Shown: positions 1,398-20,369, counted from the stretch's first letter. The stretch: DNA of 28,065 nt from a bacterium (GCA_043803945.1 JAZDJN010000096.1:1-28065), one strand, 5' to 3'. Translations and numbers: made by a program. The notes: generated by a model from the letters alone, not told the origin.

Positions 1398-1528
1398 TGA
1401 AAAATACTCTCTGCCAGGAGAAATAGTTTTTCAGTCCCATTGCTATGGAGACGACAAGGGCTTCCTGTTTTCATGATACGACTAAACACAAAACTACTCA
1501 AGCACGACTTTTCAGAAAGGATGTCGAT

Positions 1529-4500: not shown

Positions 4501-5203
4501 TGCGGGGGTGATCTGTAAGGGGAATGGAATGGGGGGCGAAATCTACTGCATAGATGTAGTAAATTGCTATCGGTTCTATTTTTGGAAAGGAGACGCTCCG
4601 AGTGTATTAGGCCCATCGCCTCAACCTGGTTGGTCTAGTATCGTGGTAACGTATGATGGCTCGACAATGCGATTCTATTACAATGGGTCATTGTATGCAT
4701 CGACCAGTACAAACCTTGGAAATTTAAACACAAATGACCATGTGGTTAGCATCGGTGCTCGCCAGTCCGGATCATCGACTTACAATTTCACATTCAATGG
4801 AGCAATAGACGCCGTACGGCTGTATGATTATCCATTGACAAGTGCGCAGGTGCTTGAGTATCACAATGGTACGCTGGCAAAACGTGGTGTGTATGAACCG
4901 GATCCGAAGGAGAATGTAGAAGTCGAATTGCCTCGTGAGTACCAACTGTTGCAGAATTATCCCAATCCCTTTAATGGATCGACAGTCATTGCATATGCCC
5001 TTCCACATGATTCTTATGTACGTCTTAGCATTATGGATCTCCTCGGTCGAGAGGTGGCGATACTTCTCGATGCTCACGTCAAGGCAGGCTACCATAGGGT
5101 AGCCTTCGATGCCGACCTGGCGCACCTGCCAAGCGGTGTTTATTTGTGTCGAATGCAGGCAAATGCGTTCGTCGAAACGCGCAAACTATTATACACGAAG
5201 TAA
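1529..5203 (+). CDS. Large secreted multidomain protein: glycoside-hydrolase-like TIM barrel, 2 LamG domains, 2 'PNG' Ig-like repeats, T9SS-type CTD
   Basis: Start moved to ATG 1529 (AAGGA upstream, signal peptide MKRYIRYISVLLALLSL). N-terminal motifs 'YSLAHEEP' and 'RRPTIEEMRVQAYLALSRGSRGI'. LamG ends 'FNGLIDEVRMWDRALS' and 'FNGAIDAVRLYDYPLT'. 'TSPNG/TQPNGGE' repeats. 'QNYPNPFNGST...LPSGVYLCRM'. Confidence 0.85.
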   Translation: MKRYIRYISVLLALLSLFRYEAFSQQSDTSSYFPLGFWGIWINPDRPPYNPQTFYISEWNKEKENWNNAKGNFLVYHIPQWVENQVMDYVETAGYRMDINRGHYNGSALDSSLVKWIREAEISMPWSTWTAGADARISAVVSAFGSRTGLYTYSLAHEEPIVNIAPENDSLFNATYCWPRVQYVANRIKQLDPNPLHKTYVVSGGAPSYGFVMSCPSVDIIQMDVYFFKEDVPNIYSAQQSALDNFLSHYDATMTRVRGRSTEWQAIIQSQREYRTVGDIAPRRPTIEEMRVQAYLALSRGSRGITSFVYGSDMRPSGGAQGSGGQNQSGVSGPVYPLLNGGVLPEQQSINGYDGLVDIDRTPFNETSDIDNIPAFENNKNLFIELASIGSTIRKLKHYQAFPGWNVPANNSAGIVSVSHNYNGDNRIEVGTFKRMDQGLDSTSYFILANRVCNDSIGTVSDFQSVSVVLQGNHSLEEQRSKQIYTGSYDIANDRSSFLLRLAPGEGKLFKIGPQYMKLHQAFNGNANDQSGSGNNGSIYGASFTPAASNLGLNFDGITDYVSIPNSSSLNPSAITLAAWIQPNTLFQDFGAGVICKGYGCGDEIYSIDIVDSKLRFYFWTNNAHGIVAPNPISGLAWISVVATYDGQTMILYLNGNEVARGTPGVSELAGNTHELTIGSRQSGNGEYDLSFNGLIDEVRMWDRALSASEILEFYNPQNAPPLTLTSPNGMQNMIVNSSHTITWTSTGIASINLFYTTNGGSSWLSIASNLAASSGSYIWTVPNTPSGNCLVKIVDVNNQAKYDESNCPFLISTPPASIVVTQPNGGETWWIGNSYWITWTSENVSSNVKIELSTDNGITISYLIAQNEANDGAFFWPIPSGIASSQCRILITAIDESAYDFSDNSFTIAQSGGVKIAQYSFDGNTLDESGNGNNGTIVGNAPYVTGRWGQALLFGNYNQYVSVPNTSLLNPGSISIAVCVNPSNPIVNFGAGVICKGNGMGGEIYCIDVVNCYRFYFWKGDAPSVLGPSPQPGWSSIVVTYDGSTMRFYYNGSLYASTSTNLGNLNTNDHVVSIGARQSGSSTYNFTFNGAIDAVRLYDYPLTSAQVLEYHNGTLAKRGVYEPDPKENVEVELPREYQLLQNYPNPFNGSTVIAYALPHDSYVRLSIMDLLGREVAILLDAHVKAGYHRVAFDADLAHLPSGVYLCRMQANAFVETRKLLYTK

Positions 5204-6576: not shown

Positions 6577-7129
6577 TCATTGGATGAGCAGCATCTTTCG
6601 ATGAAGTGAAGACTTCGCAGTCTCTAGTCTGTAGATATAAATACCTGATGGTAGAGCCGATCCGTCAAAAGTAACATGATGAATTCCTGGATTGGAAACA
6701 GAGCGAGCTTCCCTGAAGACAAGATGGCCGAGCAAATCAAAAACGGACAGGCGGACATCCTGCGGTGTCGGAACTTCGAATTCAATTCGGCAAACCCAAT
6801 CGAGATACATCGAGTTGGAAGACTGAGCTGCGAGACGTGTGCGGTCCGAACACGTATGGGAGTTCCGTTGGCAAGAGAATCCACGATAAGCGAACATTGT
6901 CGAAGAACACCTGAGTGACAGGGCCTTGATATGGCTGAGTGACTGTGACAGCGGAATCCGCCTGGTTCGTGACCGTACCCGTAAGCATGCTTGCCTCGCC
7001 GTAGCCATAGGTTCTTTTGTCAGTCGTGATGGAGATCGTCAATTGCGCGAGTCCTTGCGGGCAGAAAAGCAAGGTCACGCAGACCAACACGGCTGCAGCC
7101 CTCGTCAGATTTCGTGAATCGTATGTCAT
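6577..7129 (-). pseudogene. Disrupted secreted protein with T9SS-type CTD
   Basis: The signal-peptide ORF (MTYDSRN...LLFCPQGLAQ) stops at 6782. A CTD fragment 'IEFEVPTPQDVRLSVFDLLG...LPSGIYIYRL...RKMLLIQ' continues in another frame and lacks the YPNPFNP motif. Confidence 0.75.
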
Positions 7130-7338: not shown

Positions 7339-8025
7339 TTAGTTACGATAGAATAACAACACCTCGACACGTCGGTTTTTTGCTTTGCGGTAGACGCTAG
7401 TATTGGCTTCCACTAACTTGCTTTGATTGTAAGTTGAATCTTCGGCCGAGCGCCCAGAGGGTTTGTATTCACCAAATGAAGTCGCGGACATTAGACAGAT
7501 CGAGGGGTCAACACAGACGGTGTCTTTAAAAAACTGGAATACCTCAATTGCCCTTGCTGCCGCTAATTCGAGGTTTGAGGGAAATCGCGATGATGGATCC
7601 GTGTCTGCGTGGCCTTGAATTTGAATTTCTTTAAGAGAAACCAATTGTTTTTTTATCACATTGCCTACTATGGAAAGCAGGTGCCTACCGCTCGGACTTA
7701 AAACAGCCACATCAGGCGGAAAAAGAACGTGGTCGCTGAACATTAACAGCTGTTTGTCAAGATCGTTGCGGATAACCATATCTCGATCTCGTCCATCGGA
7801 AAATGAGATAATAAAATCATCGCCGATCTTTTTGTGTTTTATATTGTAGGCGTCCTCGAGGCCTCGAATCATTGCTTCTTGTTTTTGCCTGATTGGGCCA
7901 ATGTCCACTCCAACAGCGAGCACAGCTGCGATGAGAAAAAGAACGAGAACAAGTACCAACACAATTGATAACATTATGTCAGCAAAAGAAGGCCAGAAGT
8001 TAAAATCGAGAGAAGATTCATCCAT
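7339..8025 (-). CDS. MotB/ZorB-like protein: one TM helix with conserved Asp plus OmpA-type peptidoglycan-binding domain
   Basis: 'FWPSFADIM' plus TM helix; 'IQIQGHAD', 'SNLELAAARAIEV', 'FGEYKP', 'NRRVEV'. Confidence 0.9.
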   Translation of the reverse strand: MDESSLDFNFWPSFADIMLSIVLVLVLVLFLIAAVLAVGVDIGPIRQKQEAMIRGLEDAYNIKHKKIGDDFIISFSDGRDRDMVIRNDLDKQLLMFSDHVLFPPDVAVLSPSGRHLLSIVGNVIKKQLVSLKEIQIQGHADTDPSSRFPSNLELAAARAIEVFQFFKDTVCVDPSICLMSATSFGEYKPSGRSAEDSTYNQSKLVEANTSVYRKAKNRRVEVLLFYRN

Positions 8026-8052
8026 AATTGATGCCTATTGGATTTTCACCTG

Positions 8053-9780
8053 TTAATCCCGGGTGAATGCTCTTGCAATGCGCGCTATTATTCGTTTTGG
8101 CCACCGCTCTTCTTCCTGCCTCTGTTTCTGAATTTCCTTTACCGGGATTTGGTCAAATTTACTGTGTTTTGTTGATTTAACGGTGTCCTGTAAATTGTTG
8201 ATTGATTGTGCAAGGTATTGCATTCTTTCGGATTGTGTTTGTGCTGTCGATGTCATCTGTGTCAGTAATGTGACAAGCGTGGAAGCGAGATCGTTAAAAA
8301 CAGTTAACTGTATATCAACCTGTTTTTCTCTCTGCATGAACAATCGTTGTAATTCCTCCTTGAGCGCAGTTGTGCGTTTATCAACAGCGTCAAGAGCTCC
8401 CGCGACCTTCTGTGCAGCATCGTTTATCGGAGTGTCAAATCGCTGGAATTGTTGAACGATTGCATTGAGCTGAACTCTTAGGGTGTTCTCCACGCTAGAC
8501 AATTCATCGTGGAGCTTTTGAATTAAGGGATTGCCAAAATTCTCAATTAGTTCTTTGTTCTTAGAATCAATTTGTGATAGGGTTTGATTAACAGACTCCA
8601 GGAGTTTTTGCAAAGCTTGATCAATTTGTTGGCGTTGAGCTAGGTAAGCTGTTTCATAACTCTTCAGGCTTGCTACAATTAGTTGCAGTTGTTGACCTTG
8701 ATCACAAAGAGTGGTGGAAATTGTTGATTGAAAAGCCTGAGCCTCCTTTAATGCTATCCCGACGTTTTCTTTGAGAGTCGATGAATTTTCCAAGGATTGC
8801 TTGTATAGGGAATGTAGTTCTTCTTGAAACGAAACTATCTTAGCTGTTCCTTGCTCAAATTTAGTTGCAAAGCCTGATAGGGAAGTTCCAATTTCGGAAA
8901 GTTGCTTAAGGACTTTGTTGGATGATTTAAGATTTGTGTTGAATTCGCTTGCTTCGTTCTGAATTTCTTTTGCAAACTCAGCAACTTTTTCTGCTGCTTG
9001 GAAACTCTGTCTCATTTGTTCCTCGCTACGCTTGAGAGTTTCGACAAGCCTCAATGGAGTTGTTGGTATTAACTGAGGTATCCAAACGTTAATTGTAAGA
9101 TGATCGAGCAGATGTTGTGCGGGTGCACAGATAAACCTAATGTAAAGAGTATACAGTAAAACTCCGATAATGGTCAGGGCGACCCCTGATATGCTTGGAG
9201 CGAACGCACCCCTTAATTGGAGCAAAAGATTAGAGATGGAAGAGCGAATCTGTTCGTTAGACCAAGCACGTGTGCTTGTTTGGATGGGTTCAGAGAATTG
9301 GATAAGACTATCTGCAAGGCCGATGAGTGTACCTAACAAGCCAAGCACAATAAAAGAGCCGAGAAGTCCTCGAAGAAAAGAAGTGTATGAAAATAGCCTT
9401 TGACTTGTATGTCTAAGTAACTCGCTGACATCCAGGCGTGTTTCAAAGTAACCAGCATCGAAAATGGATTTCAAATGAACCGATATAGGATCATCTTCTG
9501 GTAAAGTGTTACTTTTGGCGTACTTGGTGAAATATTCTTTGGTGGAAATATTTCCGAGGTTCAGGTCAGTGTGTTCATCCGAAATTCTTGCCCGTGATTT
9601 AGCGATAATGGAGCGAAGATAAGTAATATCGCTGCAGGAGGACAACCTACGCGTTCTGATGAAAATGGTTCTCGTGGTAAAAAAAAGAATCAGAAGCCAA
9701 ACGATAAAGGCTATACCTAGGATTACGACAATTGCTGATGCAATTGAATTTGTCGGATGCAAGTAATGTTCAAGGTTCAT
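8053..9780 (-). CDS. MotA/ZorA-like ion-channel subunit: 3 TM helices plus ~350-aa helical tail
   Basis: TM1 ~aa15-35. 'IVLGLLGTLIGL' and 'GAFAPSISGVALTII' match the MotA/TolQ/ExbB/ZorA helices. Long Q/E/L/K-rich heptad-like tail. Adjacent to the MotB-like gene. Confidence 0.85.
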   Translation of the reverse strand: MNLEHYLHPTNSIASAIVVILGIAFIVWLLILFFTTRTIFIRTRRLSSCSDITYLRSIIAKSRARISDEHTDLNLGNISTKEYFTKYAKSNTLPEDDPISVHLKSIFDAGYFETRLDVSELLRHTSQRLFSYTSFLRGLLGSFIVLGLLGTLIGLADSLIQFSEPIQTSTRAWSNEQIRSSISNLLLQLRGAFAPSISGVALTIIGVLLYTLYIRFICAPAQHLLDHLTINVWIPQLIPTTPLRLVETLKRSEEQMRQSFQAAEKVAEFAKEIQNEASEFNTNLKSSNKVLKQLSEIGTSLSGFATKFEQGTAKIVSFQEELHSLYKQSLENSSTLKENVGIALKEAQAFQSTISTTLCDQGQQLQLIVASLKSYETAYLAQRQQIDQALQKLLESVNQTLSQIDSKNKELIENFGNPLIQKLHDELSSVENTLRVQLNAIVQQFQRFDTPINDAAQKVAGALDAVDKRTTALKEELQRLFMQREKQVDIQLTVFNDLASTLVTLLTQMTSTAQTQSERMQYLAQSINNLQDTVKSTKHSKFDQIPVKEIQKQRQEEERWPKRIIARIARAFTRD

Positions 9781-9804
9781 AGGTAATCCCGTCCGTCAGA
9801 TGTT

Positions 9805-10854
9805 TTATTCTCCTTCGCCCACCTGAAGCTCGCCGGGGTCAACAAGATTCCAAGTTTCACCTGTTGAGTGTGTGAAATAAGCTGGTCGAATCAGTGCGAA
9901 GCTCCTGTATCGCAAATTGGAATCAAATCCTAAGCAACGGAAAACTAAGCCGATGGCACCGGGACCATAATTTAATTCTTGCAAAGTCAGGTCGAAGCGT
10001 GGAACCACCGCAAACTTGTTGCTGGATTGGGCTCTTAAATCAATTGCGTAGTAGTCACCATCAGAAGCGGACTGGAAAACTGGCTTAAGATTTGAGTCTG
10101 TGCGACGCTCCATCGCATTTTGCACTCTGATGCGCGACATTCGGAAAGCATTTCGAAAACTTGATCGGTCATTCTCATTTCGCAAGGCAGCGTTGTAAGA
10201 AGAGATAAGTTCTTGTATAGGTAAGGATTCAATGGTTGTTGGTTTTGATAAGCTTGTCTCGAACATTTCTGTTGGAGGTGTCAGTGCAACTCTCGATTGT
10301 GTAGCAAATGGCACCCTAATGTGCTGCAATTCACTTTCAATAAGTTTAAGAGTCTCGTCTATCTGACGTTGCTTATCTTCGATACGCGTGAATCTTGAGT
10401 ACAGTCCATCCAGACGGTGGCTAATTTCGTAGTTTGAGGTCTGAGGTGAGTATGCCCTGTGTTGTCTTAATCGTCTTCTCTTTCCAAGTAAATACAGACT
10501 TGCTCCACTAACTGCCATGATTAGCACAACAGCAAGAGAAATTATTTGTATCAAAGAAATTGAATTTGTGTTAGAGCTCGATGGGTCTGCTTTTGTTACT
10601 GAACGAAATTCTTCGAGTTTTTCCGAGAGCTCAAGATTTTGTCTCTTGAGCTTTCTAATTTCTTCTAGTGTATTAGAAAGCTTTTCACTAAGACTGTCCA
10701 CTTTGGTGATGAGGGATTTGTCTTGTGTTGCGCCAGACTTGACACTTCGTTTATTCTTGTCAGACTGAGCGATGGATGAATGTTGTATCAGTAAAAAGAG
10801 AGAAAATAAAGCTGCAATTTTGACGAATCGCGATCTGGCCACGGCGGAAACCAA
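9805..10854 (-). CDS. Bitopic membrane protein: signal peptide, coiled coil, TM helix, coiled coil, C-terminal globular domain
   Basis: Signal peptide (...HSSIA-Q). 'LSEKLSNTLEEIRKLKRQNLELSEKLEE'. TM 'LIQIISLAVVLIMAVSGASLYLL' followed by KRRRLR. Start is TTG 10854 or GTG 10842. Confidence 0.8.
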   Translation of the reverse strand: MVSAVARSRFVKIAALFSLFLLIQHSSIAQSDKNKRSVKSGATQDKSLITKVDSLSEKLSNTLEEIRKLKRQNLELSEKLEEFRSVTKADPSSSNTNSISLIQIISLAVVLIMAVSGASLYLLGKRRRLRQHRAYSPQTSNYEISHRLDGLYSRFTRIEDKQRQIDETLKLIESELQHIRVPFATQSRVALTPPTEMFETSLSKPTTIESLPIQELISSYNAALRNENDRSSFRNAFRMSRIRVQNAMERRTDSNLKPVFQSASDGDYYAIDLRAQSSNKFAVVPRFDLTLQELNYGPGAIGLVFRCLGFDSNLRYRSFALIRPAYFTHSTGETWNLVDPGELQVGEGE

Positions 10855-10890
10855 TCTCCTTTCGTGCAGAGATTAAAATTAACCTAGGTT

Positions 10891-13800
10891 TTACAGACTC
10901 TTCCATTCTTCTGAGCAGATTTCAAGCAACGTCTTGAGAGCCAGTATGAATAACGGTTCTACTGAGATTTTCTTTTCTTCAAGGCGAGCAATGTCACTGA
11001 GTTTGTCCCCGAGCCTTTTATGAACCTTCAGTATAATATCATTGCTTAGTGGTGGGAATCCAGAGTCCTTTCTTGCTGCAAAGGTGTTAAATATTGCGGC
11101 AAAGCTTTCCATTTGCTCAAGGTGAGCAGCCGGCGTCAGGTTATTTTTGAATGATTCGACAGACAATGGTGCTGACCACTCCATTCGCTTGCCTTGGATC
11201 AGAAAGCACTCGCCTGAGATAACCTGCGATATTGTTTCTGGTATGTCTAGAATTTTTTTACCGACAAGGCCACTAGCTGCTTCCTCCTTCGGTTTTTGAC
11301 TAAGAATAATCTTAAATGATGCTTTTGCGCATTGCTCCAAACCAGAAGATCGCGAAATCGAATCTCGAAAGAGGATATTGGCTGAGCTTTGAGGAGTAAA
11401 GGATCCTTCTGAGATCCAATGGAACAATTTTGAACCATTTCCACCCATGTAAATGTCAGGTAACTGGGGGTCATATTCACCCTTCTTTGCAAGGTGCTTA
11501 AGAATGAGTCCGACGTAGTAAAAGATACCAGATAGGCCGACTGCGATGATCTGAACGAATTTCTTCATATTGGCTTTTCCAGATTTCTTGTTAAGCAATT
11601 TGAGCCACGCTTCTCCTCGCACAGCGATGATTGCATCGGCGTGAGCACAGAATTCAAGTTCTCTTGCTTTCAACGCGATTAGTCGAGAGATGTCACTTTC
11701 GAACTCTTTGAGAAAGTCAGGATTTGTGCGTAGTGTATTCAAGAAGATTTCCCTACCTGCTAAGCGGAACGATACTTGATGACGGAGCGCGTTATTTTGC
11801 CAGATTGCGACGTCTGATGTGCCACCACCGACGTCGATACAGACTGTGCCGCTTTTTGTGGAAGCCTTTAGATTGTCAGCGAAGTAGATTGCCGAAGCAG
11901 CGCTTTCGGTCATCGCAATCGCCATATCCTCTGTTTGGGGAATTCCTAATAAGTTAGAATATTTTGAGATAATTTGTTGCCAGTTGACTTTCAAGCTTTG
12001 ATATTCTGAGAATGCTGTTGGATACGAATACCGCCAACCAACTTGCGCAACTCCTTTTGATGCAGCTTCGGCAAGAGCTTGTAAGTAAACCTGTTCTAGA
12101 AACGCAGTAGCTCGATATCGATCAATTTCATCCTCTGACCATTTAAGGTTCGTTGCAACGTTTTTTGGTATCTCATTTTGGACCTTGGTTGGGTCAAGAA
12201 AGAATATGTGGCCATCACAGAATGGATTCAATGTGTTCTCTTTTCCTGGCTCGCGGAATTGTTGGTAAAAACTAAGGAACGGAGTGCGCTGAGGATCTCT
12301 TGGGATGAATTCATCCCGCATTTGTAATCTTGCGTAGGTAGATTCTGTGACGTGGGCTGTTAGTTCCTCCCGGAAAAGTAAGGGCTCGCCCTCATTGTCT
12401 TCTTCGGAAGTATACAGAGTTGTACTGGTTGTCCCGAAGTCAATACCGATTTTCCAAGTGTTGCGGGTTGGATCAGCTTTTTCAGGTGCTTTCAGTATTA
12501 TTAATCCCGCGTAAAACTCGTCCATTCGATTAAGTTGAAGATTAAGGCCTAGCGCGAAACACTTGACTGCACTTGGGAAAGAATCCGTTTGCGTGATTTC
12601 ACTTTCTGTTCGATTCCTATCCAACTTGATAGTGTATTCTGTCTTCACACCGTCAAGAACAAACGGCTTAGCATAGAAGGTGCTTTCCCTGCCAGTCTTT
12701 GAGTAATAAGTAAAGTATAGTTGCCAACCTTCTTTTCTGAAGTTTGGCCAAATCTCGAGGACTGGGACTCCTTCTAGTACTAGAATCGTATCTTTGTGAT
12801 ACTCCCGTCGAAATTCTACCAATTTACCTTTACCGTCTGGTCCGGAAAGTCGCAGCCGTAGACGAACTTGAATAGGCCCTCCTTCAGAGGATTGCTCGAA
12901 CACGATGTTCTTTTGGAGGTCATCATTGCTGATGTGGGACAAAACCTTGTCAGTGAATGGAAGCAAAGGTGTTACAATTTGACCTTGAACTGTCAGAGAA
13001 CCAGAGCCAGCACTTAACATCGCACCCGGTAGTGCGTTTGCTTGATAAATTACGCAAAGCTTAGTAGTGAATATGTCTTCAGGGAGACAAATCTCTTCCT
13101 TGTCTTGCTGCAAATGAATACCACCGATCTGGCTGCGTTCTGTCCCGAATCCACTGGGGGGAATATCCGCCAGGGTTGCACCTTTGTAGACGACAATGTT
13201 TGTTTCGGGCATATTCCATTGCTGAGCGATTGATCTGTCGATAACAAAGATTGTTTTTGCAGGAGTTCGTCCTTCGGACGGCAAAAGTTGCAGGTGTGAA
13301 TTTGGCAATCCATTGCCATCACCCTTTAGCGGTTTGTCTAAATATTGGAAGATCCCTCTGGTTAAACCGAATCCTCTTGTGCTTAGGATTACCTTCACAC
13401 TTGCCACACCACCAAGATCGGCGATGTAATTGGATAGGTGACGAAGCAACTTATTCAAACGGGGATTAGGATGATTTGGATTAGACAAAGAACTCAAAGC
13501 AGAGAGTAGATTATCTATCCATGCTGCAAGTAATCTTCTCTCGTTTTGGTTAAGCTTGTTTGTCTTTTCCCCATCAGTTTCCTTTATCTTGCCGGATGGG
13601 TCTTTCAGGAATCGTCCGTCAGACCAGTTTACCCCATTCAGTCGATTAAAACAGTCTGTAGCGGTACAAACCAAGGTAGTAGGAGAAAGTATACCAATCG
13701 GTTTATCGTTATTTAGGACAACAAACGGGAAAAATTTTGTTTGTGCATCTATCCAGAGAGTCGATTGCTCCAAGGTATTTGTGTTGGAGGCCATCTTTGC

Positions 13801-14235
13801 CACAGTCGAGAGGAATCGTGGCCATTGTTCGTTGCCTTGGGCATCCTTTGGAATCACCTCGATTAGATTTCCATTCTCATCGGTCCGCTTCACTCTCGGG
13901 TGTGCCTCGATGATCCTCAAACTAAATCCCTTGATTTCCTTGAAAGCCAACAAAGCTAGCAAACCCCGCCATTCTGCTACAGTGCGATAATGAAGAAGAT
14001 GGTCGGAATCGAAAAATGCCATTTCGAAGAGAAGTGGCCGAGCCCAAACATCCGGAATAGAGTTTATCTGAGATGCAACACGCTCCACCTTCAAACTATC
14101 ACTTAATTTGTCCAGTTCACTAAAGTCTCTTTTGTCCCAAACTCCGTTTTCCTTAAAGTTACCAATCCTGTTTTCTGACCCTTGTTTGAGTTTAGGAAGC
14201 AGAGGATGATAAATGATTTCATTGCTGGTAGGCAT
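10891..14235 (-). CDS. Large protein (1114 aa) with C-terminal actin/Hsp70/FtsA-superfamily ATPase domain
   Basis: Phosphate-1 'IGIDFGTTST', connect-1 'MTESAASA', phosphate-2 'CIDVGGGTSD', adenosine 'YMGGNGSK', connect-2 'PKEEAASGL'. Start moved to ATG 14235 (AAAGGAG RBS, 5 bp after the tubulin stop). Confidence 0.85.
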   Translation of the reverse strand: MPTSNEIIYHPLLPKLKQGSENRIGNFKENGVWDKRDFSELDKLSDSLKVERVASQINSIPDVWARPLLFEMAFFDSDHLLHYRTVAEWRGLLALLAFKEIKGFSLRIIEAHPRVKRTDENGNLIEVIPKDAQGNEQWPRFLSTVAKMASNTNTLEQSTLWIDAQTKFFPFVVLNNDKPIGILSPTTLVCTATDCFNRLNGVNWSDGRFLKDPSGKIKETDGEKTNKLNQNERRLLAAWIDNLLSALSSLSNPNHPNPRLNKLLRHLSNYIADLGGVASVKVILSTRGFGLTRGIFQYLDKPLKGDGNGLPNSHLQLLPSEGRTPAKTIFVIDRSIAQQWNMPETNIVVYKGATLADIPPSGFGTERSQIGGIHLQQDKEEICLPEDIFTTKLCVIYQANALPGAMLSAGSGSLTVQGQIVTPLLPFTDKVLSHISNDDLQKNIVFEQSSEGGPIQVRLRLRLSGPDGKGKLVEFRREYHKDTILVLEGVPVLEIWPNFRKEGWQLYFTYYSKTGRESTFYAKPFVLDGVKTEYTIKLDRNRTESEITQTDSFPSAVKCFALGLNLQLNRMDEFYAGLIILKAPEKADPTRNTWKIGIDFGTTSTTLYTSEEDNEGEPLLFREELTAHVTESTYARLQMRDEFIPRDPQRTPFLSFYQQFREPGKENTLNPFCDGHIFFLDPTKVQNEIPKNVATNLKWSEDEIDRYRATAFLEQVYLQALAEAASKGVAQVGWRYSYPTAFSEYQSLKVNWQQIISKYSNLLGIPQTEDMAIAMTESAASAIYFADNLKASTKSGTVCIDVGGGTSDVAIWQNNALRHQVSFRLAGREIFLNTLRTNPDFLKEFESDISRLIALKARELEFCAHADAIIAVRGEAWLKLLNKKSGKANMKKFVQIIAVGLSGIFYYVGLILKHLAKKGEYDPQLPDIYMGGNGSKLFHWISEGSFTPQSSANILFRDSISRSSGLEQCAKASFKIILSQKPKEEAASGLVGKKILDIPETISQVISGECFLIQGKRMEWSAPLSVESFKNNLTPAAHLEQMESFAAIFNTFAARKDSGFPPLSNDIILKVHKRLGDKLSDIARLEEKKISVEPLFILALKTLLEICSEEWKSL

Positions 14236-14240
14236 AAGAG

Positions 14241-15788
14241 TTACTCCTTTCCGACCGTATACATTTGTGCAAATTTTTCTGTCTTGCATTGGGTATACAA
14301 AGCATTGATGAATCGCCCCGATGCCCTAGCTTGAGCGTCACTAACGTTTGAATCGCTCATTCTTTCCCACAGATGGTCGAGAGCATTTGCTTTCTCAGAC
14401 TCGCAGGGAAGCAACAGATCCGCAAACTCTTGGACAAAATAGGTCTTGGGGTCCTTTAGTATGATAGTCTGTTTTCCGTTCTCTTTTTTTGAGGTTGCGA
14501 AAGTGTTGTGGTTGAAGAGCTGCATATCTACTTCCTTGGCACTTGCTTGCACATTGGCGGCCCATAGGAGAAAAGTCTGACAGTAATCTCGGACCTTCAA
14601 CAATTCTGCGTCAAGCACTTTTGACAATTGGACATCACGAGACCGTTCGAAGAGATTGATATACCAGGGAGAGCGGTAACCTCTTCCATTCCTAGCAATG
14701 CTTTGGAGAGTTGGATAGTACGTGCAATCATAGGCAAAGGCGAAACGAACCAATTGATCAAGCTTGGCAAGCAGGTAACGTCTATCGTTCACAAAGGGTA
14801 TGTCGTACCAAGATTGCACATTTGTCTGTTTGCGAGCTATCATCATACAATTGTCGGGTTTCTCCGTTTTGAAGAAGTCGATGGCTGCAAGTGCTGCATA
14901 TATTTCGAGAAAATGTGGTTCATTCCTTTGGTCTTTACCTCCCTTTGGATCTTTTCCACTGGTTAATGAAGGTCCTAGGGGTGTTAATACGTGATCACCC
15001 AATACATACAGTGAGTTGAAGGCATCCAGATAGTCTGTGCCTGCATAGTATTTGAGCGCCGCTTGTGTATTGATCAAGAAGTTCTCAGCTTGGGCTCGCA
15101 TCTCGTTGTCATCAGTTCGATCAAAAGAAAAATATGGTAACATAGCGACAGCCGAAATATGGTAATTCTCGATGATTTTGTTCTTTTTCAATTCTTCTTT
15201 GATTAAGCGTGCAATGGTAGGTAATCCGGATGCACCTGTTCCGCCGAAAATTGAACCGAACAATATTATTTTTGCCGGTTCGCCAGTCTTTGCATCTCGG
15301 GCAATCTTATCTCGGAAAGTCTTCCACGGCTCTCCTGACCCAAGATCGATTGTGCTCGTTAGTACGGCCGCACCAATCGCTGGATGCCCTCTAAAACCTT
15401 CGTCAAGTCGTGTGCCCTTTTCTTCAGTGCTAAAGAGAACGTCAAAAAGGTGAACCACATTTGGTGTGTTGGACTTCATCTCGTCATAGGTGAAAAACTC
15501 CTCAAGATTTGGCTTTGTTTCTTGACCGAAGGGTGACCATACATCCGGAATGGCAACTGAGATTGGAGTTTTGAACAAGTCAATAGAACCTAACTTCAAC
15601 TCCCGGCAAGTTGAATAGAGTTGAAGCGTTAACTCAGCGCGTTCAAGTGTGCCGTTGGATTTGTCCGGATCTACAAACAATACATACATTTCTTTGTTCG
15701 TGGGCATAAGACCTGCTGAACATAGATGTATAAGTGATTCGATACATTTGGCTCCTGTACCGCCAATACCGATTGCATAATAGGCCAT
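14241..15788 (-). CDS. Divergent tubulin/FtsZ-superfamily GTPase (Tubulin_2/FtsZ-like)
   Basis: T1 'IGIGGTGAK', T3-like 'GFRGHPAIG', signature loop 'GSIFGGTGASG', 'MLPYF'. GAAGGAG RBS. Confidence 0.9.
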   Translation of the reverse strand: MAYYAIGIGGTGAKCIESLIHLCSAGLMPTNKEMYVLFVDPDKSNGTLERAELTLQLYSTCRELKLGSIDLFKTPISVAIPDVWSPFGQETKPNLEEFFTYDEMKSNTPNVVHLFDVLFSTEEKGTRLDEGFRGHPAIGAAVLTSTIDLGSGEPWKTFRDKIARDAKTGEPAKIILFGSIFGGTGASGLPTIARLIKEELKKNKIIENYHISAVAMLPYFSFDRTDDNEMRAQAENFLINTQAALKYYAGTDYLDAFNSLYVLGDHVLTPLGPSLTSGKDPKGGKDQRNEPHFLEIYAALAAIDFFKTEKPDNCMMIARKQTNVQSWYDIPFVNDRRYLLAKLDQLVRFAFAYDCTYYPTLQSIARNGRGYRSPWYINLFERSRDVQLSKVLDAELLKVRDYCQTFLLWAANVQASAKEVDMQLFNHNTFATSKKENGKQTIILKDPKTYFVQEFADLLLPCESEKANALDHLWERMSDSNVSDAQARASGRFINALYTQCKTEKFAQMYTVGKE

Positions 15789-15823
15789 TGTTATTCTCCT
15801 TCTTTTGTCATGTCAAATGATTT

Positions 15824-16285
15824 TTACCACCATCGTCGAAGACTCTGAGCACCTAATGGAGTGTACTTGAATGACGAAGGTGAGAATAGGACTGTGCCGA
15901 CGTAGTACGGGGCTATTGCACTAATAAGGTAAAAGAAGTAAGCCCACCACATACCTTCCTGCACTGCTGGAGTCAATAAAATTGCTACAATAGTTGTTAC
16001 TGCAGGCAGAGAAATGAGGATTAACCAAGCGAGCCTTTTGCCTGCACTTGTCCAGTCATTCAGTCGAAACAACCATTGAGCAAGGATGTACCAGAGAAGT
16101 CCGCTTACGGTTGAAGCAATAATAATGTAGACAGACCAATCCTTAAAAGTACTGAGCCACTCTTCGATTGAAGATGGTGTACCTGAGACGACATTATAGA
16201 GATGCTTAGATTCGACAAGCACGGCAAGTGAAACCATTGCAAGAGCGATGATGGGCATAGCGATAACGAGTAAAAAGCGTTTCAT
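15824..16285 (-). CDS. Four-TM membrane protein
   Basis: Four hydrophobic segments. C-terminus 'LFSPSSFKYTPLGA'. AAAGGAG RBS before ATG 16285. Confidence 0.8.
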   Translation of the reverse strand: MKRFLLVIAMPIIALAMVSLAVLVESKHLYNVVSGTPSSIEEWLSTFKDWSVYIIIASTVSGLLWYILAQWLFRLNDWTSAGKRLAWLILISLPAVTTIVAILLTPAVQEGMWWAYFFYLISAIAPYYVGTVLFSPSSFKYTPLGAQSLRRWW

Positions 16286-16302
16286 ATGAGCTCCTTTCTG
16301 GT

Positions 16303-17637
16303 TCATTCTTTCCTGATGTAATAGAATAGGTGCGCAATCTCTGGTTTCTGGGTTTGAACAATTGCTTGAAAAAGGTCGAGCGAGAACTTCCTCAGATTAA
16401 GAGTTGTGTTCCCCTCAAAAGTTGTTGGCTCATGTTTCCAATCAGGCAGTTTTGTGAGATTCATATCCCAAGAAGATACCCACTTGGGTAATAAGTCTAT
16501 GTTATCCTTGAGGTGTATTGTTTGTTCAATAATGTATACTCCAGTTGCCAGCAGGTTACTCTCGTCTATTTTTAATCGAAGTTCTATCAATGAATCGTTG
16601 ACCTCTGATGTTGTCGTGATAACGTTGCTCCAGTCCGGATAGGTAACAAGTGTATCTCGGTTACCGACAAGTTCCGCAGCTTGTACTTTGTGTGGTGTAA
16701 TTTTAATCTCAAATGCAGATGGATCAAGATCGAGAGTGTAGGGCAGACGGACTCTCGGTAATAGAAGGGTCAATTGGGATTGAGACCGGCCACTTTTTAT
16801 TCTAAGTTGTTTTACCCTTGAATCCTTTGAGTCGTGCGGTAAGATGTTTGTAATCTCATCTGTGTTAACTTTCGAATGCACCTTTGCTTTTTCAAATGAG
16901 GGCAACGGGTATGAGAAGTGACGGGACAGTATAACGAAATTCTTGGTAGGCAGTTCATTGAGAATTCTGATATCAAGGCTTCTGTGTAAGTGCTCAATAT
17001 CTCGATGTTTTCCAATCATAAGAATGTAGAATGGTCGCTGACCGTCATAGTCAAAGCGGTCTCGGTTGATACCTACGTCAAAGACGGTACCGCGAAATTC
17101 ACTTTTTATACCAAGCAAACCAACTGACAAGTCCTTTGGGAGAAATCTATCTTTGAGCTTGTTCACCAATTGAGTGACGTCAGCGTCATCTTGAAAAAGA
17201 TCTGCCACAATAATCGTAAGGCGTTCGGTGCTTGCACCATCAATAACTTTCTCCATTGACGTGACACCACGAAGATCCGGCTCATTGTAGAAGGCTGGCT
17301 TGACTACGTTCTTCTGTTCACGCCCGGTCAGTTCTCTTATCGTTGTGCCGAATCTGTAGAATGTAACCGTTGCATTCGGCCATCCGGTTGTGATTGAACC
17401 CTCAATTCTGTCGACAGTCCGTGCATAGTCTGTAGTGATGCCTAGATTAACAAAACCTTGCATAGAAAGGGTGGCATCGTAAAACACATCGACGTTGATT
17501 TCGGTTGATTTGTCTTCAAGTTTCTCGTACTGATGTATAGCTGGAGGTGGCCACTTCTTGGGAGTTGAGCAAGATCCGAGGATGAATGCACCTCCGAGTA
17601 TCAGGGTTGGCAAGAGTAAACTCTTTAAGATTCTCAT
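16303..17637 (-). CDS. Lipoprotein with vWA-like domain
   Basis: Lipobox 'ILGSC'. MIDAS-like 'VFYDATLSMQGF' and later 'IIVADLFQD'. AAGGA RBS before ATG 17637. Confidence 0.75.
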   Translation of the reverse strand: MRILKSLLLPTLILGGAFILGSCSTPKKWPPPAIHQYEKLEDKSTEINVDVFYDATLSMQGFVNLGITTDYARTVDRIEGSITTGWPNATVTFYRFGTTIRELTGREQKNVVKPAFYNEPDLRGVTSMEKVIDGASTERLTIIVADLFQDDADVTQLVNKLKDRFLPKDLSVGLLGIKSEFRGTVFDVGINRDRFDYDGQRPFYILMIGKHRDIEHLHRSLDIRILNELPTKNFVILSRHFSYPLPSFEKAKVHSKVNTDEITNILPHDSKDSRVKQLRIKSGRSQSQLTLLLPRVRLPYTLDLDPSAFEIKITPHKVQAAELVGNRDTLVTYPDWSNVITTTSEVNDSLIELRLKIDESNLLATGVYIIEQTIHLKDNIDLLPKWVSSWDMNLTKLPDWKHEPTTFEGNTTLNLRKFSLDLFQAIVQTQKPEIAHLFYYIRKE

Positions 17638-17815
17638 ACTGTGATCCTTATGTAGTATATTCAATTCTTATATACGAGAAATGGCGCCTAACTATCGGCT
17701 AATTGCCATACCTGTCTACCGTCTTACTTGTGAGATGGCGATTATTTTCTCTCTGGGCAGAACTTCATTCGATGGCTTTCTCTCTCTAGTCGGTTGAAAA
17801 GTGACTTTAAACACA

Positions 17816-17966: not shown

Positions 17967-18587
17967 TCAACAGAGGTGCTCCTCCATTGCTTTCGCAACG
18001 GCAATTCCCCTGCTATGGACGTTAAGTTTCTTATAGATATTTTTGCAGTGTGAAGTGATGGTGTAGTAGCTCGACGACGATCTTCGTGCTATCTCCGCCA
18101 TTTTCATCCCGGAGATAAGGCAGCGTAATATTTCCTTCTCCCGTAATGTCAAATGGTACTCGTCACTGTTATCGATTGCGAGATGTTCCAACTGGGGACA
18201 ATAATATCGATGACCCTTGTGAAGAGCGTGAATTGCCCGGAGCAATTCTTCCGGCGGTGCATCTTTGAGCACATACCCGCTCGCTCCGGCGCGAATGGCT
18301 TCTCTCACAAATCCCTTCTGAAGATGCATCGAGTGCACCAGATATTTTGTTTGAGGCAGCGCTTTGCCGAGGTGTCTGATAAGTTCAAGCCCATTCTCGT
18401 CGGCCAAACTGATATCGAGAATTATGATCTCAGGAGAATACAGCGGCGCCTTTGCGATCGCCTCTTTTAAGGAGAGCGCCTCTCCAACAACGCTGATCCC
18501 GCTCTGCTCTTCAAGGAAATCTTTTACCCCTTTGACCGTCAAAGGGTGATCTTCAACGATAAATATCTTAATTGGTTTTCTGCTCAT
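17967..18587 (-). CDS. NarL/LuxR-family response regulator (REC plus HTH)
   Basis: 'IVEDH', 'ILDISL', 'GASGYVLK', 'LTLREKEIL...HCKNIYKKLNV'. Start is probably ATG 18587 and overlaps the kinase end. Confidence 0.92.
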   Translation of the reverse strand: MSRKPIKIFIVEDHPLTVKGVKDFLEEQSGISVVGEALSLKEAIAKAPLYSPEIIILDISLADENGLELIRHLGKALPQTKYLVHSMHLQKGFVREAIRAGASGYVLKDAPPEELLRAIHALHKGHRYYCPQLEHLAIDNSDEYHLTLREKEILRCLISGMKMAEIARRSSSSYYTITSHCKNIYKKLNVHSRGIAVAKAMEEHLC

Positions 18588-19752
18588 GGAACGTTTCGGC
18601 GCCATTAAAAGGCGACTGAAAAAATATTTCTGTCCCCTTCTGCAGCTCAGAATGAATCCTCAGCGATCCCCCAAGGCTTTTTGCCCGCTCTTTCATCCCG
18701 ACTATGCCTAAGGGAAAGTGACCGTCCTGCGATTGATGATTGGTATGATCGAACCCCCGGCCATTGTCGGCAATACTCATTGTGAGGGTTTTATTTTCGA
18801 TGAGCAGTGTAATGGTCACTTCTTTTGCGTCGGCATGTTGTTCGACATTGTGGAGGGCCTCTTGAACGATCCTGAAAAGGACAATTTCCATCTGTTGCGG
18901 CAGTCGGGCGATCAAACCGGCATCTTCAAGAAGAATGTTGATTCCGGTTTTCTCCTGGAACTCTTCACAAAAATTCTCTAACGCCTTCTTGAATCCGAAT
19001 CGATCCAGGACAAGAGGTCGGAGCTTACCGAGAATCCGGCGTACTTCGATGATGGTTTGCCCCAGCAGCTTTTCAGCTTCATTCAATGAACCTCTTATGG
19101 CTTTGAATTTAGCAGGTTTCGACTTGTAGATCGTCCTGTTGATTTCAAGCTTAGCCGCATTGATGAGCGCGCCGATACTGTCATGCAATTCCCGTGAGAT
19201 ATACCTGTTCTCCTCTTCGCGAGCCAACATCACTCTTCTCGCAAGTTGCTTGAGATCTTCCTGCGCTGTATAGTGCGCGGTTATATCACGGAAATTTACA
19301 ACCACGGCCCGGACGGCAGGCTCCTGAAGAAGGTTATTCGCAGAGAACTCGATCCATCTCCAACTCCCATCCTTGTGCCGGATTCGAGATTGGGAACAAA
19401 TGAGTTGTGCGCTGGAATTTATGAGATGTTGACGAAACACCTCCATTCCCGCAGTATCGTCGGCATGGACAATATTCCATACCGAGAGGACGTTGAGATC
19501 CTCCATCGAATAACCGAGTATGAGCTGCAGCGATGGGCTCGCGAATATTATTCTCCCTTGTTCATTGAATAACAGCACGACATCGCTGCAGTGTTCGATG
19601 AGGGCACGAAACCGCTTCTCACTCTCTTCAATGATGGCGAGACGTTTCCGTTGCGATTTGGTGATATTCCACACAACTGTAACTGCCGATGCAATCAATA
19701 CAACGGTACCGGCAGCAAACATCACAAAAAGTTCTATCGGCGATAAAAACAC
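18568..19752 (-). CDS. PAS-domain sensor histidine kinase (HisKA_3, NarX/UhpB type) with one N-terminal TM helix
   Basis: PAS 'RFRALIEHCSD...RIRHKDGSWRW'. H-box 'ISRELHDSIG'. 'FRIVQEALHNVEQHA', 'IADNGRGF', 'LGIVGMKERA'. Start is probably GTG 19752 or ATG 19722, not 19914. Confidence 0.92.
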   Translation of the reverse strand: MFLSPIELFVMFAAGTVVLIASAVTVVWNITKSQRKRLAIIEESEKRFRALIEHCSDVVLLFNEQGRIIFASPSLQLILGYSMEDLNVLSVWNIVHADDTAGMEVFRQHLINSSAQLICSQSRIRHKDGSWRWIEFSANNLLQEPAVRAVVVNFRDITAHYTAQEDLKQLARRVMLAREEENRYISRELHDSIGALINAAKLEINRTIYKSKPAKFKAIRGSLNEAEKLLGQTIIEVRRILGKLRPLVLDRFGFKKALENFCEEFQEKTGINILLEDAGLIARLPQQMEIVLFRIVQEALHNVEQHADAKEVTITLLIENKTLTMSIADNGRGFDHTNHQSQDGHFPLGIVGMKERAKSLGGSLRIHSELQKGTEIFFQSPFNGAETFHEQKTN

Positions 19753-20369
19753 ACGAATCCCATGCTGTAAGAGATGTTCGTCAGTATCGTAATGAACGCT
19801 TGAACGCTGAATGCAAGCCGGAGTGTCTCCAGGGACACCTCGAGGAACGAGTTGCTCAATGCATACAGGAATACCATGCTCGAAAAGTATACGGTTGCCG
19901 TGGAGGAGATCCAAAACTCCGGTTGATGAATCAATTTGCCCTGTACTCTATCGGCGACCACGCCAAGTGTTTGTCCGGCAATGATTGCCAGGAGAATACA
20001 CTCCGTGCTTTTTGTGATGCTGTTGAATAATATCTTGTCCTCAACAAAGAAAAACATCAGCAGGCAAAACAGGGTGAAAAGCATAATAGAAAGATGAAGC
20101 ACCCTCTTTGCCCTAGTTGATACTTGCCAGGTGGCAAACAGCCACGCAAAGACTCCATATTGAATTGGGGTGAATAGATGAATAGTCCAGAGATTATTCA
20201 CGTCGTGTAGCGCAAACCAGAGCTGGATCAAAGTGAAACAGCAAGAGCACGATATATACACCAGGAATATTTTAAATCCTTTATTTAAGTGCCTGAACAA
20301 TAACAAACCGCTTGCCAGTACTACAAAATGCGAAAAGGCGGCAATGTGTATGTGGAGCGGTATAGACAT
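19734..20369 (-). CDS. Polytopic (~6-7 TM) membrane protein, possible receptor
   Basis: Hydrophobic throughout. 'NNLWTIHLF', 'PEFWISS...YFS'. AGGTG RBS. Overlaps or abuts the kinase start. Confidence 0.8.
   Translation of the reverse strand: MSIPLHIHIAAFSHFVVLASGLLLFRHLNKGFKIFLVYISCSCCFTLIQLWFALHDVNNLWTIHLFTPIQYGVFAWLFATWQVSTRAKRVLHLSIMLFTLFCLLMFFFVEDKILFNSITKSTECILLAIIAGQTLGVVADRVQGKLIHQPEFWISSTATVYFSSMVFLYALSNSFLEVSLETLRLAFSVQAFITILTNISYSMGFVCFYRR

Follow-up and report, generated by a model that had tools for sequence, protein, structure and literature searches.

Which of the seven genes packed on the minus strand of a 28,065-nucleotide bacterial DNA stretch (GCA_043803945.1, JAZDJN010000096.1:1-28065; this whole stretch is called the window below) belong to one system, and what would such a system do? 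The cluster, at positions 7339–17637, brings together a lipoprotein with a domain resembling von Willebrand factor A (vWA) (g1), a small polytopic membrane protein (g2), a tubulin/FtsZ-superfamily GTPase (g3), a giant protein ending in an ATPase domain of the ASKHA (acetate and sugar kinase/Hsc70/actin) fold (g4), a bitopic membrane protein (g5) and a pair resembling the MotAB and ZorAB ion motors (g6 and g7). A first-pass annotation, made from the sequence, had described these as seven co-oriented genes, and all seven open reading frames (ORFs) are indeed present on the minus strand in the order claimed. Comparison with homologous loci reveals that the core consists of g1–g4, and that the motor is one clade-specific add-on among alternative downstream modules.

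Loci were compared with g4 as marker. Scanning a single genome for each species yielded 79 loci, each taken with up to 10 kb on either side and read by tblastn of the seven window proteins together with clustering of all ORFs. In the 61 loci that are complete upstream, g3 lies directly before g4 in 46, and 45 of these carry g1 too; g2 was placed between g1 and g3 by tblastn in 28 of the 61, and some other loci hold an ORF of its size (150–170 aa) at the same site. The 53 fully flanked loci (at least 3.6 kb upstream and at least 4 kb downstream of the g4 homologue) comprise 19 with the core and the motor genes g6 and g7, 19 with the core and no motor, 14 with g4 alone and one with g3 only. The window's order of all seven genes recurs in 16 of these 53, which belong to other phyla and are drawn from Acidobacteriota, Poribacteria and a metagenome-assembled genome labelled Clostridia. 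Because the same seven genes stand in the same order in 16 other loci, the arrangement is not a product of chance, and chance juxtaposition was rejected on synteny and partner content. The first-pass annotation had staked its single-system proposal on the motor pair accompanying the tubulin/actin genes in other genomes, and the two occur together in 19 of the 53 loci; no motor pair was seen apart from the core among the surveyed loci, save at one contig-edge locus cut inside g4. Its treatment of the motor as part of the system thus survives as far as co-occurrence goes, but not as an integral part, with 19 of the 38 complete core loci lacking it.

In a FastTree reconstruction of the 65 g4 ORFs longer than 950 aa (shorter or truncated ORFs omitted; Shimodaira–Hasegawa-like supports), 18 motor-type rows, the window's included, form one clade (support 96), and two Negativicutes motor-type rows branch apart from it. 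The motor label changes only twice on this tree, against a mean of 17.4 when labels are shuffled (0 of 500 shuffles as low). We number the loci with an L; those given for a derived Selenomonadaceae/Quinella clade, in which no tubulin gene lies within 10 kb of g4, are L022, L026–L031, L035, L036, L039–L043, L047, L052, L054, L057 and L070. Apparently decayed copies also turned up: g4 is split by an insert with two reverse-strand ORFs at L037:~10800-12660 (Poribacteria), and g3 is split into two ORFs at L019:8314-9871 and L055:8455-9974.

Where the motor is missing, other modules take its place downstream of g4. In a sister type, found in Bacteroidota, Ignavibacteriota and a Janthinobacterium, a genuine short Hsp70 (PF00012, 2.9e-90, ~517 aa) follows g4 immediately, and after it come a ~700-aa protein with two C-terminal transmembrane (TM) segments and a 3–4-TM protein ending in SH3_3; these genes stand in place of g5–g7 at L058:13587-17916, L061, L068, L072 and L074, and in a fused form at L071:14878-18564. 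The pairing of the g4 ASKHA domain with a true Hsp70 recalls, as speculation by analogy, the Hsp110–Hsp70 pairs. The Anaerovibrio and Selenomonas loci carry g5 followed by zinc-ribbon/TM proteins and a glycoside hydrolase family 3 (GH3, NagZ-like) enzyme, and in one Pelagibacteraceae and one Microcystis locus long bitopic coiled-coil proteins downstream of g4 end, as judged by eye, in a g5-like C-terminal motif. Some loci extend the cluster further: in the acidobacterial L002:17208-19121, L003, L008 and L009 a multi-TM protein with an Ion_trans_2 pore (1.7e-12) comes right after g7, and in Poribacteria (L006:12653-13618 and others) the extra gene encodes a secreted protein that weakly matches a transglutaminase core (E 0.0081). 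The alternative modules (Hsp70 plus TM-SH3, GH3, transglutaminase-like, a PDZ protein) are all envelope- or peptidoglycan-related. By eye, the acidobacterial Ion_trans_2 protein also contains an OmpA-like GHAD...N..LS..RA stretch. Just upstream of the cluster in the acidobacterial locus L002 (4232-5677) lies a GmrSD-type restriction endonuclease gene (GmrSD_N 4.1e-9; PADLOC PDC-M55C 2e-20).

What do the two NTPases at the heart of the core have to do with each other? The g4 N-terminus is conserved yet poorly ordered on its own: folded alone, it has a predicted local distance difference test score (pLDDT) below 50 up to residue 65, yet P61, W64 and F70 are invariant. For this reason we modelled residues 1–480 of g4 together with g3. 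Three runs gave ipSAE (interaction prediction score from aligned errors) values of 0.85, 0.86 and 0.84, against 0.00 for all three controls; of 80 solved complexes 58 attain the mark applied, as do 2 of 110 mismatched pairs, a calibration that is only rough, as our own alignments were used. At least 89% of contacts were common to the runs, and the partner pLDDT was at least 81. The predicted interface involves residues 9–69 and 109–196 of g4 and, on g3, residues 113–123, 135–141, 180–191, 217–219, 235–267 and 294–331. Among these, 135–141, 180–191 and 217–219 overlap the conserved GFRGHPxxG, FGGTGAxG and LPYF motifs, which we take to be the FtsZ loops T3, T4 and T5. The nucleotide face of FtsZ and tubulin is the longitudinal polymer contact that receives the next subunit, and the g4 N-terminus is predicted to clamp just this GTP face of g3. 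We know of no similar complex, so that the prediction seems unlikely to echo a known structure. Because the model gives one tight heterocomplex on the nucleotide face, we favour a reading in which g3 and g4 would make up a nucleotide-controlled switch and not two independent filaments.

The GTPase g3 (14241..15788, minus strand, 515 aa) belongs to the Tubulin_2 (FtsZl1) family. It passes the Pfam Tubulin_2 profile PF13809 (37.3 bits against a cut-off of 27, residues 6–246), as do its relatives in large part, 22 of 25 homologues matching at E≤1e-3; the GIGGTG (residues 8–12) and FGGTGAxG (181–188) loops are invariant in 25 sequences. Matches to Tubulin/FtsZ are weak and lie at the signature loop, Pfam Tubulin PF00091 aligning with residues 159–207, and a g3 profile searched against PDB chains returned no sequence matches.

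Its partner g4 (10891..14235, minus strand, 1114 aa) consists of the conserved N-terminal peptide, an N-terminal region spanning residues 1–590 and a C-terminal ASKHA ATPase domain at ~590–1000. Within an AlphaFold2 (AF2) model built on 19 homologues (pLDDT 82, predicted template modelling score, pTM, 0.72), residues ~590–1000 adopt a clear two-lobed ASKHA fold, and the phosphate-1 DFGTT (D599-F-G-T), phosphate-2 D801-x-G-G-G-T-x-D808 and adenosine GGNG (G932-N-G) motifs are invariant. The first-pass description of a giant actin/Hsp70-fold ATPase stands as to the fold, and actin-like cannot be told from Hsp70-like: Foldseek ranks Hsp70 nucleotide-binding domains (NBDs) first (E 3e-9), whereas VIA-align, on residues 591–997, ranks MreB first (Z 12.8, root-mean-square deviation 4.0, 285 aligned), followed by BeeR (11.9), ParM/FtsA/EutJ (11.7) and BiP (11.6). 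Sequence searches give sub-threshold MreB, FtsA and EutA matches, all on one short stretch; against the bacterial actin models the scores stay below the cut-offs (MreB_Mbl 19.3 versus 27 bits, FtsA 18.4 versus 31.8) and cover the phosphate-2 stretch only, Pfam HSP70 PF00012 gives no match at E≤0.1, and there is no substrate-binding domain. In both structure searches with g4 the ASKHA domain filled the result lists; ESM Atlas, queried with residues 60–590, returned only matches below 0.9 to unnamed clusters. This distinctive family numbers 1199 representatives out of 1.84 billion at E≤1e-30, almost all of them ~1050–1150 aa long.

One candidate identity for g4 was tried and rejected, namely SrfB, suggested by one weak ESM Atlas row (score 0.82, SrfB in 19% of members). 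The SrfB profile PF07520 does not match g4 in the window's genome or in five carrier genomes, nor was SrfB found in 81 sampled genomes of one class. Separately, Westiellopsis has a second giant ORF (L082, G005:C1:2765768-2768977; >1037 aa, open-ended) with a sub-threshold PF07520 match; its alignment to the g4 profile is limited to the generic phosphate-2 stretch of ASKHA proteins (hhalign probability 74%).

The product of g6 (8053..9780, minus strand) is a MotA/ExbB/ZorA-like channel subunit in which a hydropathy scan finds three TM segments and a 335-aa helical cytoplasmic tail. Its TM region matches PADLOC ZorA3 (1.7e-5). Among its homologues, 15 of 19 match PADLOC ZorA1 models, with the coiled-coil models LmuB and JetC matching too, and the Pfam MotA_ExbB profile also picks up 15 of the 19 (E<0.01). 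The invariant GxxGTLxG and AxxPSxxGxxxT correspond to the Gly/Thr/Pro TM motifs of MotA/ExbB channels, and a g6 profile against PDB chains recovers mostly coiled-coil noise, with ZorA chains at E 0.014. The MotB/ZorB-like g7 (7339..8025, minus strand) combines a single TM segment bearing an invariant Asp with an OmpA-type peptidoglycan-binding domain. It scores 36.1 bits against Pfam OmpA (cut-off 27.2), aligns over its full length (residues 5–223) with PADLOC ZorB1 (9.5e-14) and matches the NCBIfam MotD, MotS and peptidoglycan-binding models equally well, at 1e-10 to 1e-14, all under their cut-offs. In 19 homologues the TM Asp D16 (within FNFWPSFADxML), N151/L154/R158 and N217–R219 are invariant, and the OmpA-type domain keeps the N..L..R and NRR peptidoglycan-binding residues. 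With the three TM segments and tail of g6, the TM Asp and OmpA domain of g7 and the PADLOC ZorA/ZorB matches, the Zorya-like architecture proposed at first pass is borne out.

Preceding this pair, g5 (9805..10854, minus strand) encodes a protein that the hydropathy scan shows to be bitopic, its TM segment lying at ~99–117; it also has a signal-like segment, a short coiled coil and a cytoplasmic C-terminal domain of ~130 aa that is conserved among 20 homologues. No family match was obtained in Pfam, NCBIfam or PADLOC, and ESM Atlas gave only matches below 0.9 to unnamed clusters. Likewise, g2 (15824..16285, minus strand) matches nothing in Pfam, NCBIfam or PADLOC; it had been called a 4-TM protein, and the hydropathy scan supports three clear hydrophobic segments, the fourth being weaker.

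The lipoprotein g1 (16303..17637, minus strand; 444 aa from the ATG at 17637) has an N-terminal vWA-like domain and a C-terminal beta-sandwich. Across an alignment of 23 homologues the lipobox Cys is invariant, as are D54-x-T-x-S58 and D146, which resemble a metal-ion-dependent adhesion site (MIDAS); T145 is nearly invariant among the homologues, yet Ala in the window protein. The AF2 model has pLDDT 86 and pTM 0.85, and its residues ~40–222 align with vWA/MIDAS domains at VIA Z 5.5–7.2, vWA proteins making up most of the 50 listed rows. Foldseek with the same model gave no match at E≤1e-3, the window protein has no Pfam vWA match, a profile search of PDB chains gave 0 matches, and one of the 23 homologues weakly matches VWA_CoxE (0.0018). 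The vWA-like label, drawn from the modelled fold, is reasonable but not firm.

At the level of gene packing, the operon-like spacing claimed earlier (gaps of 5–36 bp) agrees with the intergenic distances, which from g1 to g7 are 17, 35, 5, 36, 24 and 27 nt. Starts were refined on Shine–Dalgarno (SD)-like motifs and on the called form of the giant protein g4, bringing the span from 7339–17664 to 7339–17637. AGGAG-type SD-like motifs lie 6–13 nt 5' of the ATG or TTG of g2 (16285), g3 (15788), g4 (14235) and g5 (10854), and a weaker AAGGA precedes the start of g1 (17637); inspection of the sequence upstream of g6 and g7 found no SD-like motif. For g2 an alternative ATG at 16306 would create a 4-nt overlap with g1, and for g4 the 1114-aa form starting at 14235 is preferred to a longer ORF (1132 aa, start 14289) that has no SD. 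A scan for consensus promoters and terminators returned no more sites than in shuffled sequence (19 versus 16.3 and 10 versus 10.3). Co-transcription of g1–g7 is thus putative, as judged from spacing and synteny.

Beyond the cluster, 302 nt separate g1 from the gene upstream, which encodes a LuxR-type response regulator, and 330 nt separate g7 from the ORF downstream. The regulator and a PAS histidine kinase (17967-19914, minus strand) stand directly upstream on the same strand as g1; this pair is not conserved beside the cluster in the other loci compared. Three ORFs, at 50-1318 (plus), 1445-5203 (plus) and 6577-7008 (minus), contain Por_Secre_tail/CHU_C sorting domains of the type IX secretion system (T9SS). 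One is a 1252-aa Laminin_G_3 protein, and the 143-aa ORF just below g7 resembles the sorting-domain end alone of such a T9SS cargo. These sorting-domain ORFs suggest a host in a T9SS-bearing lineage.

The phyletic distribution of the cluster is that of a rare accessory trait. In none of 40 genomes related to the window's (24 from its family, 16 from its order) was g4 found at E≤1e-10; 38 of the 40 have a completeness of 90% or more and a contamination of 5% or less. Full-length g4 homologues occur on five cyanobacterial plasmids, including a 47.5-kb mobilizable Gloeothece plasmid with g1–g4-like genes; its NCBI annotation calls the g3 homologue tubulin-like and lists all else as hypothetical. 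Absence from the sampled relatives and presence on plasmids argue that the cluster is an accessory trait moved by horizontal transfer. Most loci are chromosomal, and carriers are spread patchily over many phyla, among them a Pelagibacteraceae single-cell genome, planktonic cyanobacteria and rumen Selenomonadaceae. No match to g4 was found in a phage collection. The g1–g4-like plasmid clusters are L083 (NC_014503.1 32323-47550) and L084 (NZ_CP014003.1), and one plasmid encodes a MOBP relaxase.

How does the cluster relate to systems already described? The first-pass annotation was right to state that FtsZ-like families have been described next to genes for vWA and OmpA proteins: Makarova and Koonin (2010, PMC2875224) defined FtsZl1, with vWA, OmpA, kinase and GTPase genes and the uncharacterised families B1–B9 as neighbours in the main text, and the present cluster is a member of the FtsZl1-centred class predicted there. 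As in those operons, a protein that passes Tubulin_2 (g3) is encoded with an OmpA gene (g7) and a vWA-like one (g1, by fold only), the membrane partners have no recognizable domains, and the spread is patchy alongside a normal FtsZ. The common FtsZl1 organization given in that text, though not as a strict criterion, is a protein of ~1000 aa with an N-terminal GTPase, an extended coiled coil and a helical C-domain, whereas g3 has 515 aa, its homologues 479–583 aa, and Pfam gives no coiled-coil-type family match. The OmpA proteins were read there as outer-membrane barrels, whereas g7 is here a MotB-type inner-membrane stator subunit, and the cluster has no protein kinase or P-loop GTPase gene, unlike the operons described. 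The main text of PMC2875224 mentions neither MotA nor HSP70, and its Additional file 6, which covers families B1–B9, may list some of g2, g4, g5 and g6 under no name.

Like ZorAB, as described in the available text of PMC11946911 (Hu et al. 2024/2025) and PMC11890865 (Mariano et al. 2025), the motor pair comprises a subunit (g6) whose three TM segments are followed by a long helical tail and whose gene directly precedes that of a subunit (g7) with a TM Asp and a peptidoglycan-binding domain. Unlike in Zorya, ZorC/D, ZorE and ZorF/G are absent (by PADLOC for the seven proteins, by Pfam for the flanks), and the motor is accompanied instead by the tubulin-like g3, the ASKHA giant g4, the vWA-like lipoprotein g1 and the membrane proteins g2 and g5. 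The earlier statement that no ZorC/D/E-type, flagellar or dcw gene is recognizable likewise holds by PADLOC and Pfam for the seven genes and the window flanks. Since the effectors are absent and curated cut-offs are not reached, the cluster is not a Zorya system; the accessible portions of the two Zorya structure papers, for their part, do not mention tubulin or FtsZ.

Further parallels concern single components. The g4 protein shares with Hsp70/Hsp110 NBDs and with MreB, FtsA and ParM the two-lobed ASKHA fold and intact phosphate-1, phosphate-2 and adenosine motifs; what sets it apart from Hsp70 and the bacterial actins is its N-terminal region of 590 residues, for which binding to the tubulin-like g3 is predicted. 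In the vWA–TolQR/ExbBD systems of PMC12204202, where vWA proteins coupled to TolQR-like motors are proposed as force transducers, and in the Agl–Glt/CglB machinery of PMC9946355, a 5:2-type ion motor is encoded together with a periplasmic or outer-membrane vWA protein, as a putative one is with the vWA-like g1 here; the vWA proteins in the sections available of those papers are either subunits of the TolA/TonB-like or TolR-like kind, tethered by a TM segment, or an adhesin of the outer membrane, whereas g1 is a lipoprotein encoded four genes from the motor and tied primarily to the tubulin/ASKHA core, with or without the motor. The CoCoNuT restriction systems hold Hsp70-like domains with vWA and GTPase partners and differ in gene content, as far as the text available of PMC11090510 goes. 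The accessible text of PMC12505986 and PMC12204202, on MotAB relatives and periplasmic force transducers, does not describe the cluster, and in the 2023 phylogeny of PMC9871819, so far as its text is available, Tubulin_2 proteins serve only as an uncharacterised outgroup. Full-text literature searches, which reached neither subscription journals nor Additional files 5 and 6 of PMC2875224, found no operon joining tubulin-like, ASKHA and ZorAB-like genes and no functional study of one. Within that reach, three features are absent from print: an ASKHA protein as partner, the hold on the tubulin predicted for it, and a motor module of the ZorAB type.

Against this background, we tentatively favour, at a confidence that falls a little short of even, a single horizontally mobile, envelope-spanning multi-protein system in which a core switch is joined by an add-on motor. 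As to its purpose, the patchiness, mobility, modularity and ZorAB-type module incline us, with more reserve, towards an anti-phage or other conflict or envelope-surveillance function. A considerable body of observations weighs against one or other part of this proposal. The g3:g4 interface is a model and not a measurement, and the vWA fold of g1 scores under the level its tool treats as distinctive. For the motor, the window's g6 reaches 16.9 bits against Pfam MotA_ExbB (PF01618), under the 22.9 cut-off; g7 reaches 19.6 bits against NCBIfam anti-phage_ZorB1, whose cut-off is 400 bits, and its nearest annotated plasmid relatives by tblastn are flagellar MotB/MotD and not ZorB. Half of the complete core loci being without a motor, this module is not essential to core activity, and the 18 g4 genes that make up the derived Selenomonadaceae/Quinella clade have neither a tubulin gene nor a lipoprotein or motor gene within 10 kb. 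The conflict role in particular suffers from a missing effector and ordinary flanks: no nuclease, protease, NADase, pore-former or other effector is recognizable in the seven genes by Pfam, PADLOC or NCBIfam, g1–g5 drew nothing useful from PADLOC-DB v2, defence candidates included, and the seven proteins match its ZorA/ZorB models only. The window flanks are housekeeping genes (T9SS cargo, a two-component system, a porin, a pyridoxal-phosphate enzyme, a peptidase), and the 117 ORFs flanking 50 core loci are mostly housekeeping in a census made without a control set, a defence- or mobile-like minority comprising SNase (four), Uma2 (three), PIN (two) and one each of GmrSD, a TnpB-like protein, a methyltransferase and a GajB-like helicase.

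The same housekeeping surroundings would suit a different role, in which g3 and g4 polymerise under the inner membrane and, with the peptidoglycan-anchored motor and the periplasmic lipoprotein, reshape membrane or wall, for instance in vesicle formation, local wall repair or building a surface structure, as a niche-specific accessory trait. Membrane remodelling is what Makarova and Koonin proposed for the FtsZl1–vWA–OmpA operons (PMC2875224, main text); both NTPase folds are those of cytomotive filaments, and every accessory module, from OmpA-like, SH3_3 and GH3 NagZ-like to transglutaminase-like and PDZ, is envelope- or peptidoglycan-related. We nevertheless regard this role as unlikely: absence from all 40 relatives, a patchy spread over phyla and residence on plasmids are not usual where remodelling is a basic function, the predicted complex has g4 on the tubulin face used for longitudinal polymer contact in FtsZ and tubulin, and no lipid- or peptidoglycan-synthesis enzyme is conserved in the core. 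Considerably less probable is an adhesion, motility or secretion apparatus akin to the myxobacterial Agl–Glt gliding machine, with the vWA lipoprotein as adhesin or exported ligand-binder. Its parts do find parallels in a vWA lipoprotein (CglB, PMC9946355), a MotA/TolQ-type motor, an actin-fold protein and a GTPase, and the force-transducer proposal for vWA proteins with TolQR-like motors, as set out in the text available of PMC12204202, points the same way; but the loci share no conserved Glt/Agl, pilus or secretion-system gene, a Pelagibacteraceae single-cell genome, planktonic cyanobacteria and rumen Selenomonadaceae number among the carriers, half of the complete core loci have no motor, and nothing ties g1 to the cell surface. 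A DNA or plasmid segregation module of the TubZ/ParM kind, lying beside an unrelated stator pair, is very improbable. Tubulin-fold and actin-fold NTPases do drive type III and type II plasmid partition, and homologous clusters do sit on cyanobacterial plasmids, but the cluster encodes no centromere- or DNA-binding protein, its obligatory partners are a lipoprotein and membrane proteins, the loci are mostly chromosomal, g3 belongs to Tubulin_2 and not TubZ, and in 19 loci the motor pair keeps its synteny with the core, with which it forms one clade. The plasmid-partition reading was accordingly rejected on synteny and partner content.

If the cluster is indeed one envelope-spanning system, its parts could work together as follows. 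The extracytoplasmic vWA-like lipoprotein g1 and the polytopic g2 would be coupled to the cytoplasmic g3:g4 heterocomplex, in which the N-terminal peptide and first domain of g4 would cover the nucleotide face of the g3 GTPase, and the two 'cytoskeletal' folds would act jointly as a GTP/ATP-controlled switch or assembly unit instead of as separate filaments. Where the motor is present, g7, with its TM Asp and peptidoglycan anchor, would be the axle of a proton-driven 5:2 motor, and g6, with three TM segments and a helical tail of ~335 residues, its wheel; the stoichiometry is one that we infer from homology. The bitopic g5, with its conserved cytoplasmic domain, would be the likely adaptor from the membrane to g3:g4. 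If the analogy with ZorAB holds, a disturbed envelope may engage the motor, which would pass the signal on to the NTPase complex; this direction of signalling and the roles of g1, g2 and g5 are inferred, and the first-pass division of labour, with the lipoprotein sensing, the motor transducing and the NTPases as effector, is plausible. In its boldest form, which we hold to be doubtful, the cluster would represent a new class of surveillance machine, where a proton-driven, wall-anchored ZorAB-type rotary motor controls a tubulin-fold GTPase and an Hsp70/actin-fold ATPase joined in an obligate heterocomplex, with the g4 N-terminus replacing the 'next subunit' on the GTP face of g3 and gating its hydrolysis or assembly.

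The FtsZl1/Tubulin_2 family has been an orphan branch of the tubulins since 2010, and this locus supplies it with a concrete, testable anatomy: a fixed ASKHA partner, predicted with high confidence, on the GTP face, a four-gene core and swappable envelope modules that include a ZorAB-type motor. Cultured or clonable carriers, such as Mitsuokella jalaludinii (L034), the Gloeothece PCC 7822 plasmid and Janthinobacterium lividum (L064), make direct experiments feasible. Should g3 and g4 indeed act together, they would be the first joint switch built from members of both great cytoskeletal NTPase superfamilies. And if the motor does feed the NTPase complex, ZorAB-like 5:2 motors would be general-purpose envelope sensors and not specific to Zorya, the ZorAB module being a portable sensor of the envelope that evolution has plugged into non-nuclease effectors.

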